The position numbers were made by a program, and so were the translations under genes. DNA of 64,000 nucleotides from Escherichia coli (GTDB lineage: Bacteria > Pseudomonadota > Gammaproteobacteria > Enterobacterales > Enterobacteriaceae). The notes beneath the pieces are model-generated. The model saw only the letters and a program-made list of their open reading frames with translations. It ran no database searches and had not been told where the DNA came from. Every line of letters starts with the position of its first letter. Position 1 is the stretch's first letter. Of this stretch, positions 11,213 to 13,143 are shown piece by piece. The stretch lies in assembly GCF_003334305.1 (NCBI RefSeq), contig NZ_QOWS01000015.1; one strand, given 5' to 3'.

Positions 11213-11401
11213 ATGGGCAAAGCAACGTATACCGTGACCGTCACCAATAACAGCAATGGCGTTTCTGTCGATTATGAAACAGAGACGCCGATGACTTTGC
11301 TGGTGCCAGAAGTGGCGGCTGAAGTGATAAAAGATTTGGTGAATACCGTGCGTTCTTATCCGGTGCGCCGTAAAACCCCGTCCTTCAGGGCGGGGATATA
11401 A
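11213..11401 (+). CDS. yoaG: YoaG (DUF1869) with C-terminus replaced by IS-derived codons (chimeric, insertion-disrupted)
   Basis: First 49 codons (to ...VRSY at 11357-11359) match recalled YoaG; the last 13 codons (PVRRKTPSFRAGI) lie inside the IS left end. Confidence 0.8.
   Translation: MGKATYTVTVTNNSNGVSVDYETETPMTLLVPEVAAEVIKDLVNTVRSYPVRRKTPSFRAGI
11376..11395. repeat. IS left-end subterminal imperfect hairpin
   Basis: CCCCGTCC-TTCA-GGGCGGGG, 16 nt inside the inferred left junction. Confidence 0.6.
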
Positions 11402-11416
11402 GGCGCGGTTTTCCAC

Positions 11417-11848
11417 CTAACCAGGTGTTTGCTGTTGTTCAATGTATTGGCGGATGACGGATATTGGCGCACCTCCGCAGCTACTGGCAAAATAGCCAGG
11501 ACTCCACAAAACGCCTTTGTAGTAATACCTGACTGCAATATCTGGTCGATCTCGTCGCAGTAACCTACCCGATACGCCTTTGAGGCTGTTTACCAGACTG
11601 GATATCGCCAGTTTGGGAGGATAGTTAATTAACAAATGGACGTGATCTGGTTCGCCATCCATTTCAACAAGTTCAGCTTCAAAATCAGCACATACATTTG
11701 AAAAGTAAGTGCGTAGTTTTTCTGTCGCGTCATGGTCAAAAATCTGGAGTCGGTATCTGGTGACAAAGACCAGGTGAACATGCATCAGGAAAACACAATG
11801 CCTTCCACGCCGGATATCGGTTTCTTTTTTCACAGACCAAAGTATCAT
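11417..11848 (-). CDS. tnpA: IS200/IS605-family Y1 (HUH) transposase TnpA
   Basis: 143 aa; HUH motif in PDHVHLLINYP; catalytic Tyr near C-terminus (VIRQYIEQQ); size typical of IS200 TnpA. Confidence 0.92.
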   Translation of the reverse strand: MILWSVKKETDIRRGRHCVFLMHVHLVFVTRYRLQIFDHDATEKLRTYFSNVCADFEAELVEMDGEPDHVHLLINYPPKLAISSLVNSLKGVSGRLLRRDRPDIAVRYYYKGVLWSPGYFASSCGGAPISVIRQYIEQQQTPG

Positions 11849-11855
11849 TTGACCT

Positions 11856-13064
11856 GTGAAACGATTACAGGCATTTAAATTCCAGTTAAGACCAGGTGGT
11901 CAACAGGAGTGTGAAATGAGGCGCTTCGCAGGCGCATGTCGTTTCGTTTTCAATCGTGCTCTGGCACGTCAGAATGAGAATCATGAGGCCGGTAATAAAT
12001 ACATCCCTTACGGGAAAATGGCTTCCTGGCTGGTTGAGTGGAAAAACGCCACTGAAACGCAATGGCTTAAAGATTCGCCCTCACAGCCATTGCAACAGTC
12101 ACTGAAAGACCTTGAGCGGGCTTACAAAAACTTCTTCCGGAAGCGGGCTGCTTTTCCCCGATTCAAAAAGCGGGGACAGAATGATGCATTCCGCTACCCG
12201 CAGGGCGTAAAGCTCGATCAGGAAAACAGCCGTATTTTTCTGCCGAAACTGGGCTGGATGCGCTACCGGAATAGCCGTCAGGTCACGGGTGTTGTGAAAA
12301 ATGTCACGGTCAGCCAGTCCTGCGGTAAGTGGTACATCAGTATTCAGACAGAAAGTGAAGTATCCACTCCGGTTCACCCTTCAGCATCAATGGTCGGGCT
12401 GGATGCTGGCGTGGCTAAACTCGCCACGCTGTCAGATGGCACAGTCTTTGAGCCTGTAAACAGTTTTCAGAAAAACCAGAAGACGCTGGCGAGACTTCAG
12501 CGACAGTTAAGCCGCAAGGTCAAATTCAGCAACAACTGGCAGAAGCAGAAACGCAAAATACAGCGACTGCATTCCCGTATCGCAAATATCCGCAGGGACT
12601 ACCTTCACAAAGTCACAACGACCGTCAGCAAAAACCACGCAATGATAGTCATTGAGGATTTGAAGGTCAGCAACATGTCAAAGTCAGCAGCGGGTACGGT
12701 CAGCCAGCCGGGGCGCAATGTCCGGGCAAAATCAGGTTTAAACCGTTCGATACTGGATCAGGGCTGGTATGAAATGCGCCGCCAGCTTGAGTACAAGCAG
12801 CTCTGGAGTGGCGGTCAGGTGCTTGCTGCTCCGCCAGCGTACACAAGCCAGCGTTGCGCGTGCTGTGGTCATACAGCGAAAGAAAATCGCCTGTCACAAA
12901 GTCAATTCAGATGCCAGGTATGTGGATATACAGCGAACGCCGATGTAAACGGCGCTCGTAACATTTTAGCGGCGGGGCACGCCGTTCTTGCCTGTGGAGA
13001 GATGGTGCAGTCAGGCCGCTCGTTGAAGCAGGAACCCACCGAAATGATTCAGGCGACAGCCTGA
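11856..13064 (+). CDS. tnpB: IS605-family TnpB (OrfB), RuvC-like RNA-guided endonuclease, GTG start
   Basis: 402 aa; RuvC-I GLDAGV, Ruv[11 protein letters not shown], Ruv[15 protein letters not shown]; CxxC...CxxC zinc finger (CACCGH...CQVCGY). Confidence 0.92.
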
Positions 13065-13077
13065 ACGTAGCAGGGAT

Positions 13078-13097
13078 CCTCGTCATTCAGGGCGTGG
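13078..13097. repeat. IS right-end subterminal imperfect hairpin
   Basis: CCTCGTCA-TTCA-GGGCGTGG, similar to the left-end hairpin; 10 nt from the inferred right end (TCAA). Confidence 0.55.
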
Positions 13098-13107
13098 AGG
13101 ATGTCAA

Positions 13108-13143
13108 GACACGGAAAACGAACATGATGTTTGTGGTTGGTAA
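13108..13143 (+). pseudogene. yoaG: Orphaned 3' fragment of yoaG (codons DTENEHDVCGW + stop) displaced by the IS
   Basis: In-frame continuation of the recalled YoaG C-terminus immediately after the IS right end. Confidence 0.7.

Follow-up and report, generated by a model that had tools for sequence, protein, structure and literature searches.

The yeaR-yoaG locus and its chimeric product

In the 64,000-nucleotide stretch of Escherichia coli DNA analysed here (contig NZ_QOWS01000015.1, hereafter the window), the yeaR-yoaG promoter/operator lies in the leuE-yeaR intergenic region (10678 to 10849, + strand). This region, which we take to be the NsrR- and NarL-controlled promoter of the operon, is identical to K-12 across alignment columns 57 to 154, AATAAATGGTATTTAAAATGCAAATTATCAGG included. 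It is followed by the first gene of the operon, yeaR (10850 to 11209, + strand), which is intact and encodes a DUF1971 protein of 119 amino acids; the same ORF is annotated as yeaR at the identical locus of strain A7. Just 3 nt further downstream begins yoaG, and it is here that the operon is interrupted.

The yoaG reading frame (11213 to 11401, + strand) consists of 49 native codons (11213 to 11359) that run directly into 13 codons supplied by the left end of an IS609 element (11360 to 11398) and a TAA stop (11399 to 11401) located in the left-end hairpin of that element. Its product, represented in RefSeq by WP_000513743.1, is a 62-residue protein, MGKATY...VRSYPVRRKTPSFRAGI, whereas YoaG of K-12 has 60 residues and ends in ...VRSYDTENEHDVCGW. 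The chimera is thus made up of 49 native and 13 IS609-encoded residues (PVRRKTPSFRAGI), as against 49 plus 11 in K-12. An earlier note on this DNA had described YoaG as a chimeric protein in which 11 residues are exchanged for 13 encoded by an insertion sequence, and the comparison of this ORF with K-12 YoaG and with the K-12 empty site bears out both points. The new tail is IS-borne, as the same left-end sequence, allowing one or two substitutions, borders IS609 at four unrelated loci. The note had also proposed a comparison with YoaG orthologues, and in the sampled IS-free genomes none terminates in PVRRKTPSFRAGI. The chimera is a structural fact and not a statistical signal, and chance is therefore not at issue.

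The displaced 3′ end of yoaG lies 1.75 kb away as an orphan fragment (13108 to 13143, + strand) that reads DTENEHDVCGW followed by the stop codon. Its frame is interrupted upstream by a TGA at 13045 to 13047, ATG, GTG and TTG are absent in between, and tnpB is read in another frame, so that the fragment is untranslated as it stands. The description of the native tail as an untranslated remnant, made in the same note, accordingly holds for this segment.

The inserted element is IS609

The inserted block extends from 11360 to 13107 (1748 bp), because the match between the window and the K-12 empty site ends at 11359 and restarts at 13108. The alignment shows the empty site to be split exactly between TCTTAT and GACACGG, with neither duplication nor loss of target sequence, and the start at 11360 is additionally supported by a pattern match. 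These boundaries agree with those of five aligned copies. Over 1748/1748 bp the block is 98.2% identical to an element of equal length in K-12 that is annotated as 'insertion sequence:IS609' (1503161 to 1504908). It is therefore the known element IS609, a member of the IS200/IS605 family, and it shows the hallmarks of that family: a Y1 HUH TnpA, insertion 3′ of a fixed tetranucleotide and no target duplication. The empty sites of IS609 at yfeD and yedK were also examined, and there, too, target-site duplication is absent. The tetranucleotide TTAT (11356 to 11359, + strand) represents the target and left cleavage site and, by analogy with ISDra2 (PMC8612924), the putative TAM of TnpB; it is found directly 5′ of the left end at all five independent IS609 insertion sites. 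Its location 5′ of the left end identifies the + strand of the window as the top (active) strand of the element. The + strand shows a positive GC skew in seven of eight blocks, which places the IS609 top strand on the lagging-strand template, the template towards which the IS200/IS605 family is biased (PMC5027513).

IS609 is devoid of terminal inverted repeats and instead has subterminal imperfect hairpins at both ends. The left-end hairpin (11365 to 11406, + strand) has the core CCCCGTCC-TTCA-GGGCGGGG at 11376 to 11395 and a predicted DNA folding energy of -17.7 kcal/mol (z = -3.2); as RNA, the 81 nt from 11355 to 11435 fold at -33.8 kcal/mol (z = -2.9). Positioned 5′ of the core, AAAA (11372 to 11375) is the candidate left guide tetranucleotide. 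The right-end hairpin (13076 to 13102, + strand; ATCCTC...GAGGAT) is weaker than the left (z = -1.7) and is present in the centroid DNA fold only, where ATCCT pairs with AGGAT. The two hairpin regions resemble each other in sequence. The right cleavage site, TCAA (13104 to 13107, + strand), forms the right end of the five aligned copies, whose final common sequence is GGATGTCAA.

Both genes of the element are intact. On the - strand, tnpA (11417 to 11848) encodes a Y1 HUH transposase of 143 amino acids with its own TAG stop, and matches NCBIfam NF033573 with E = 6e-42 (142.8 bits, cutoff 55). Its homologues in the PDB include the TnpA proteins of IS608 (2A6M, E = 2e-18) and ISDra2, and it has the expected motifs, namely the HUH motif HVHLL at residue 69 and RQYIE with the catalytic-helix tyrosine at residue 133. 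On the + strand, tnpB (insQ; 11856 to 13064) encodes an RNA-guided endonuclease of 402 amino acids (NCBIfam NF040570, E = 5e-115) that is matched by the ISDra2 TnpB structures 8H1J and 8EXA (E = 2e-55). The RuvC triad is intact (GLDAG, D183; VIEDL, E267; NADVNG, D363) and the zinc finger is represented by two CxxC pairs, CACCGH and CQVCGY. As tnpB is intact in 10/10 IS609 copies with a pN/pS of 0.24, TnpB is, by these sequence measures, maintained. The K-12 copy of IS609 showed zero transposition in mutation-accumulation lines (PMC5009759), which implies that the family may have next to no activity in E. coli.

The conserved C-terminus of YoaG

The tail that YoaG has lost follows the pattern D-T-E-x-E-x-x-VCGW over about 12 genera of Enterobacteriaceae. 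It holds the only cysteine of the family, and the VCGW motif, missing from the chimera, is invariant in 21 YoaG orthologues. The truncation is also seen with the Pfam model DUF1869 (PF08956), which wild-type YoaG matches at model positions 2-59 with 113.2 bits and the chimera at positions 2-49 of 59 with 84.8 bits. An AlphaFold2 monomer of wild-type YoaG, built from the 21-sequence alignment, is of low confidence (mean pLDDT 62.8, with the tail below 50), and the NMR structure 1NEI contains two chains of YoaG. Since the removed tail is strongly conserved and VCGW is invariant, YoaG is probably impaired. Judged on this conservation, the chimeric protein has most likely lost some or all of the activity of YoaG, a loss that the lineage tolerates, and has not gained a new function.

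Distribution and origin of the occupied allele

Among 5,426 complete genomes of E. coli, 1,096-1,100 (approximately 20%) carry the occupied yoaG junction and 4,318 have the empty site. The phylogroup B1 reference strain IAI1 is occupied, the phylogroup of carriers having been checked directly for IAI1 alone. In trees of both the left and the right flank (five occupied loci with five or six empty loci) the occupied flanks form one clade relative to the empty loci. The left flank of one occupied strain, EC20017429, lies as far from the remaining occupied loci as the empty loci do, which points to local recombination. WP_000513743.1 is intact and identical in all seven sampled carriers, the flanks of which diverge by up to 1.2%. 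In P0142, a 70-amino-acid YoaG with an in-frame right-end remnant was considered as a natural deletion that had re-joined the orphan tail; this was rejected, as there is an N at the junction and the allele is probably an assembly artefact.

The explanation that best accounts for the locus as a whole is a single old insertion. A single, ancient event would have placed IS609 in single-stranded DNA 3′ of a TTAT inside yoaG, after codon 49. The recipient would have been an ancestor of a large lineage of E. coli to which IAI1 belongs, and the insertion would have been inherited ever since; the allele is fixed in this lineage. We assign this reading a probability of about 0.85. Because the insertion is old, inherited and shared by roughly one in five sequenced E. 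coli, yoaG::IS609 is a real but ordinary lineage-specific IS polymorphism, of which both the element and the protein are already in the databases. In a search of the literature on the yoaG insertion or IS609, no paper describing the yoaG::IS609 allele was found.

Other origins have been weighed against the single old insertion. There is next to no prospect that the insertion is an artefact of assembly or annotation: two database alleles do look artefactual (CP126294, with N at the junction, and CP172819, with 15 T at the site), but the identical junction recurs in about 1,100 complete genomes that were produced independently, by many laboratories and on many sequencing platforms, and at least 1,000 contigs encode the chimeric protein. 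A hotspot in yoaG that is repeatedly filled, or spread of the occupied allele by TnpB-guided homing after recombination, would dispense with a single ancestral event altogether. It would explain why up to 26 nt separate the IS609 copies found at yoaG, some of which are nearer in sequence to the copy at yedK than to the rest at yoaG, and why the guide predicted for TnpB is an exact match to intact yoaG alleles. However, such mosaic sequences are more simply accounted for by gene conversion between resident copies, the junction occupies the same position in all carriers, and no IS609 transposition was seen in K-12 lines. As the occupied flanks form one clade on both sides, recurrent insertion or homing is rejected for the sampled loci, and we consider it very improbable in general.

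A different question is whether the chimera has persisted because it is useful, that is, whether it is a functional, selected variant whose basic tail PVRRKTPSFRAGI explains its presence in some 20% of genomes. The constancy of the protein in the seven carriers despite the differences between their flanks could be read in this way, as could strain elppa6, in which two left-end substitutions are both synonymous in the yoaG frame. Two such changes are nevertheless too few to demonstrate selection, and the left end is in any case under constraint from its function within IS609, being just as well conserved at loci that do not translate it in the yoaG frame. The chimera has, moreover, lost a motif that the YoaG family keeps without exception, and the yeaR-yoaG operon bears other disruptions, such as the IS421 within yeaR of strain MB22. 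Vertical inheritance in one clade suffices to explain the persistence of the allele, and a selected function for the chimera is accordingly rated as quite improbable.

Possible read-through into the element and a candidate guide RNA

The note had placed yoaG in a nitric oxide-responsive yeaR-yoaG operon, and this assignment is upheld by the layout of the genes, by the K-12-identical promoter core and by expression data from CFT073, a strain with an empty site, in which yoaG and yeaR are among the genes most strongly induced by NO (168-fold and 160-fold, respectively; PMC5320621). Because the insertion lies inside the yoaG ORF, RNA polymerase that transcribes the gene cannot avoid entering the left end of IS609. 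A stable left-end RNA hairpin followed by GGUUUUCC is encoded there, but a scan for terminators between the stop codon of the chimeric gene and tnpB revealed none that is strong; what is present is a 5-bp hairpin at 11414 to 11427 and the left-end hairpin, which is followed by only four U. With an intact promoter and no strong terminator in the scan, read-through from the NsrR/NO-regulated promoter into IS609 is plausible. Transcription induced by NO or nitrate from the yeaR promoter would necessarily reach the left end, and transcripts that read through would run antisense to tnpA and in the sense direction for tnpB and the guide RNA.

For TnpB, a guide RNA and a mechanism of element retention have been described (PMC8612924; bioRxiv 10.1101/2023.03.14.532601). 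A candidate omega/reRNA scaffold resembling RAGATH-18 lies at 12991 to 13034 (+ strand). Its score against Rfam RF03064 (29.5 bits, E = 0.0088) is below the gathering score of 44.9 and is treated as a hint; RAGATH-18 RNAs are guide RNAs of IS607 TnpBs (PMC11061315). When the 3′ end of tnpB and the right end were folded together as one RNA sequence, the result was not significant (z = -1.2). The layout fits that of ISDra2: the 3′ end of tnpB leads into the right end and from there into the flank, which here consists of the orphan yoaG tail. As this fragment adjoins the right end, it is predicted to template the TnpB guide, the 16-nt template being 13108 to 13123 (GACACGGAAAACGAAC), a 16-mer that is present once in the window. 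By analogy with ISDra2 and IS608, IS609 TnpB would bind an RNA that is made from the 3′ end of tnpB plus the right end of the element and finishes with ~16 nt copied from the orphan yoaG fragment. Such a complex would be expected to cut any intact yoaG allele (TTAT plus GACACGGAAAACGAAC), for example the donor joint that remains after excision, and cutting of the donor joint would favour retention of IS609.

It can further be imagined that, with the TnpB and guide-RNA module downstream of a promoter that ranks among those of E. coli with the strongest induction by NO, read-through under nitrosative or nitrate stress raises the levels of TnpB and its guide RNA and silences tnpA through antisense transcription, so that both the retention of IS609 and the cleavage of incoming intact yoaG alleles become stress-inducible. 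We regard this as unlikely; if true, it would show a host signal in control of a transposon-encoded RNA-guided nuclease in nature. Of more immediate relevance is that anyone studying the NsrR regulon in strains of phylogroup B1 (IAI1 and probably many more) will deal with a YoaG that has no conserved C-terminus and with promoter transcripts that enter an insertion sequence. There is also value for annotation, as in more than 1,000 genomes the truncated, IS-fused YoaG is named merely 'DUF1869 domain-containing protein'. Finally, the yoaG locus offers a natural and convenient setting in which to find out whether the TnpB of an IS609 resident in E. coli is active as a guide-programmed nuclease.

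Comparison with known systems

The closest relative of the window element is the IS609 copy of K-12 located between ydcL and ydcO (insQ/yncK), with which it shares the length of 1748 bp, the ends, TTAT, TCAA and the divergent arrangement of tnpA and tnpB. The two copies lie at different loci, and the tnpA of K-12 has an internal stop and is without a terminal stop, whereas that of the window is intact. They also differ in their cost to the host gene, since the K-12 copy deprives ydcO of at most one residue whereas the window copy removes 11 conserved residues from yoaG.

IS608 from Helicobacter pylori is the mechanistic model of peel-and-paste transposition in the IS200/IS605 family. It resembles IS609 in having a homologous Y1 HUH TnpA, duplication-free insertion 3′ of a tetranucleotide and subterminal hairpins. 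The IS608 target TTAC is mirrored by AAAG 5′ of the left hairpin, and its right cleavage site is TCAA (PMC3201880). The pair TTAT/AAAA of IS609 parallels TTAC/AAAG, and TCAA is the right site of both elements, assigned in IS609 from its sequence. In contrast, tnpA and tnpB point in the same direction in IS608 and are divergent in IS609; the distance from the target to the foot of the left hairpin is 16 nt in IS609 and 19 nt in IS608; and TCAA lies much nearer to the right hairpin in IS609.

With the TnpB-reRNA system of ISDra2, IS609 has in common a homologous TnpB and the geometry of tnpB 3′ end, right end and flank, which for IS609 is read from the DNA; the putative TAM is TTAT in IS609 as opposed to TTGAT in ISDra2. 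When set beside the YoaG/DUF1869 family (PF08956; 1NEI), the chimera is identical to K-12 YoaG over residues 1-49, but it is without model positions 50-59, VCGW included, in place of which it carries an unrelated basic tail of 13 residues.

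Interruption of yoaG by IS609

The yoaG gene, which lies among leuE, yeaR and yeaQ, is here a 62-codon plus-strand ORF (11213-11401) whose product is identical to K-12 YoaG over residues 1-49 and then continues as PVRRKTPSFRAGI. K-12 YoaG has 60 residues and ends in DTENEHDVCGW, and comparison with the K-12 protein and locus confirms the claim of an earlier note that the last 11 residues have been exchanged for 13 that are encoded by an insertion sequence. Alignment with the K-12 locus matches as far as ...CGTTCTTAT (last base 11359) and resumes from GACACGGAAAAC (13108 onwards), and therefore the inserted block spans 11360-13107 (1748 bp), with the start at 11360 also supported by a pattern match. 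The empty K-12 site reads TCTTAT|GACACGG with no intervening sequence, relative to which no bases have been duplicated and none lost. The orphaned 3' piece of yoaG (13108-13143) would translate as DTENEHDVCGW*. A TGA at 13045-13047 closes this frame upstream, no start codon lies between that stop and the fragment, and tnpB is read in a different frame, so that, as the sequence stands, the native tail is an untranslated remnant, as the same note had proposed.

Two ORFs lie in the block: minus-strand tnpA (143 codons, 11417-11848) and plus-strand tnpB (402 codons, 11856-13064). The former encodes a Y1 HUH transposase of the IS200/IS605 family (NCBIfam NF033573, E = 6e-42) that is homologous to the IS608 and ISDra2 TnpA structures and carries an HVH motif and a C-terminal Tyr. 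The latter encodes a TnpB RNA-guided endonuclease (NF040570, E = 5e-115) that matches the ISDra2 TnpB structures (E = 2e-55) and has the RuvC motifs GLDAG, VIEDL and NADVNG along with two CxxC pairs. Across all of its length, the block shares 98.2% sequence identity with the K-12 element between ydcL and ydcO, which is likewise 1748 bp and is labelled 'insertion sequence:IS609' in the MG1655 record; by this identity it is IS609. The yoaG insertion is a case of a curated IS at a lineage-fixed site that is found, with annotation, in more than 1,000 public genomes; literature searches found no paper explicitly describing the chimeric YoaG.

Consequences for YoaG

In a database sample, DUF1869 proteins were confined to Enterobacteriaceae and nearly all had 60 residues. 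Alignment of 21 YoaG orthologues from about a dozen genera shows that the C-terminal VCGW is invariant and that D50, T51, E52 and E54 are nearly so, and Pfam PF08956 covers model positions 2-59 in wild type YoaG (113 bits) versus 2-49 in the chimera (85 bits). The new tail is part of the IS609 left end at every locus with the element; no sampled orthologue carries it in an IS-free context, and the view of it as IS-derived stands. Because the most conserved terminal motif and the only cysteine of the family are lost, the likeliest outcome is that chimeric YoaG is impaired or null. A structure of YoaG has been solved (1NEI); the AlphaFold monomer model is of too poor a quality to give the tail a role.

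Other insertions are also found in the yeaR-yoaG operon. In MB22, IS421 (IS4-like) interrupts yeaR (L016, the fetched locus, 2748-4456) and the yoaG site is empty, while YA-1, ij001 and EC_T6 have IS421 plus IS609. The operon has been struck by IS elements more than once, and seems dispensable in some backgrounds.

Distribution and history of the allele

Among 5,426 complete E. coli genomes, a 2.9-kb locus-spanning query was at least 80% covered in 1,096, a 200-nt left-junction query was covered in 1,100 and a 301-nt empty-site query in 4,318, and thus about 20% carry the insertion. It was found directly in IAI1, the phylogroup B1 reference commensal. In all carriers examined, the RefSeq accession of the chimera is WP_000513743.1 ('DUF1869 domain-containing protein'), and at least 1,000 contigs of a large protein collection carry exactly this sequence.

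In neighbour-joining trees of the left (1.3 kb) and right (2.8 kb) flanks, five occupied loci form one clade separate from the five or six empty ones, which supports a single ancestral insertion followed by vertical inheritance. The right flanks of carriers differ at up to 33 of 2,797 positions, so the insertion is old. IS609 sequences at yoaG are up to 26 nt apart, and the copies from elppa6 and EC20017429 resemble the yedK copy (7 and 12 nt of difference, respectively) more than they do the window copy (22 and 17 nt). Independent insertions were considered as the source of these divergent copies and set aside in favour of gene conversion among resident IS609 copies within genomes, as the nearness to the yedK copy suggests.

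Two variant alleles were also encountered. In CP126294 (L017, ~1640-1680) an in-frame right-end remnant (SRDPRHSGRGGCQ) is rejoined to the native yoaG tail; given an N at the junction, this is probably an assembly artefact. CP172819 (L018, ~1645-1665) carries an added run of 15 T precisely at the TTAT|GAC junction, giving the protein ...SYFFFFFDTENE..., and its right flank is of the occupied-lineage type.

Maintenance of tnpA and tnpB

Ten IS609 copies were compared (the window copy and those of the fetched loci L003-L006, L008-L011 and L020). An intact tnpB is present in all ten (pN/pS 0.24) and an internal stop interrupts tnpA in three (pN/pS 0.41), so in this set the guided-nuclease gene is better maintained than the transposase gene; the window copy of tnpA is intact. 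The TAG stop of tnpA itself (11417-11419, IS position 58-60) occurs in only some yoaG-site copies (window/A7, EC20017429 and 10205). The position is CAG in C5, elppa6, IAI1 and all four copies at other sites, where the ORF stays open beyond the left end and extends into flanking DNA; the extension at the yoaG site would amount to ~177 codons antisense to yoaG and yeaR (minus-strand ORF 10886-11416). RefSeq labels the CAG-type copies pseudogenes 'missing C-terminus'.

At K-12 ydcO (L003), yedK (L004) and yfeD (L006) the TGA stop of the convergent host gene is the complement of the right-end TCAA (2345-2348 in each locus, corresponding to window 13104-13107). These genes had native stop codons that overlapped the TTAT target, and therefore YfeD is unchanged (TAA to TGA), YdcO is longer by one residue and YedK by one Cys; among five IS609 sites, real coding sequence has been lost at yoaG only. 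Transcripts of IS609 genes occur in STEC strains of phylogroup B1 (PMC6033998), and the K-12 copy showed zero transposition in mutation-accumulation lines (PMC5009759).

Possible read-through and the orphan fragment

The yeaR promoter region has the same core sequence as in K-12. In the empty-site strain CFT073, NO raises yoaG 168-fold, yeaR 160-fold and the adjacent locus tag c2201 142-fold (PMC5320621). As IS609 interrupts the yoaG reading frame itself, transcripts induced from this promoter must run into the left end, which as RNA has a strong hairpin followed by GGUUUUCC; a consensus terminator scan returned only a weak 5-bp terminator-like site (11414-11427). Partial read-through into IS609 is plausible, and would run antisense to tnpA and sense to tnpB and a putative guide RNA. 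It is unlikely that the NsrR-controlled promoter drives stress-inducible expression of TnpB and its guide RNA. The native region 3' of yoaG (13150-13185) has a 9-bp GC-rich hairpin, GATGGCGCA-ATTTC-TGCGCCATC, which is followed on the yoaG strand by an A-run instead of a T-run and is therefore not a canonical operon terminator.

By analogy with ISDra2 and IS608 (PMC8612924; bioRxiv 10.1101/2023.03.14.532601), TnpB would bind an RNA of ~150 nt made from the 3' end of tnpB and the element's right end. The final ~16 nt of this RNA would derive from the flank, here GACACGGAAAACGAAC, with which the orphan yoaG tail begins. With TTAT as a putative TAM, the complex would be expected to cleave either the donor joint or any uninterrupted yoaG allele and to spare the occupied allele, in which TCAA, not TTAT, precedes the guide-matching sequence. 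The only direct RNA evidence for the guide is a sub-threshold match at 12991-13034 to RAGATH-18, RNAs of which class are guides of IS607 TnpBs (PMC11061315). Given its guide-template position, the orphan is probably not inert debris but the location where the guide of the element is templated. The same would be true of the right flank in any IS605-family insertion, so this is not special to yoaG.

Comparison with IS608

When the yoaG copy was aligned with IS609 copies fetched from four loci (ydcL/ydcO, yedK, yfaY/yfaV and gltX/yfeD), the shared sequence started and stopped at identical bases in every copy, with an invariant TTAT directly 5' of the left end and a right end terminating in GGATGTCAA at every site. 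The left end has a stable hairpin, CCCCGTCC-TTCA-GGGCGGGG (DNA z = -3.2), and the right end a similar, weaker one. GC skew is positive on the plus strand, which places the IS609 top strand on the lagging-strand template, the orientation preferred by the IS200/IS605 family (PMC5027513). At sequence level, these ends show an insertion of the peel-and-paste type, at TTAT. Like IS608 (PMC3201880), IS609 inserts 3' of a tetranucleotide with no duplication, has subterminal hairpins, shows TCAA at the predicted right cleavage site and carries a candidate guide tetranucleotide that lies 5' of the foot of its left hairpin, the pairs being TTAC/AAAG in IS608 and TTAT/AAAA in IS609 here. The yoaG insertion is no departure from known IS200/IS605 biology.
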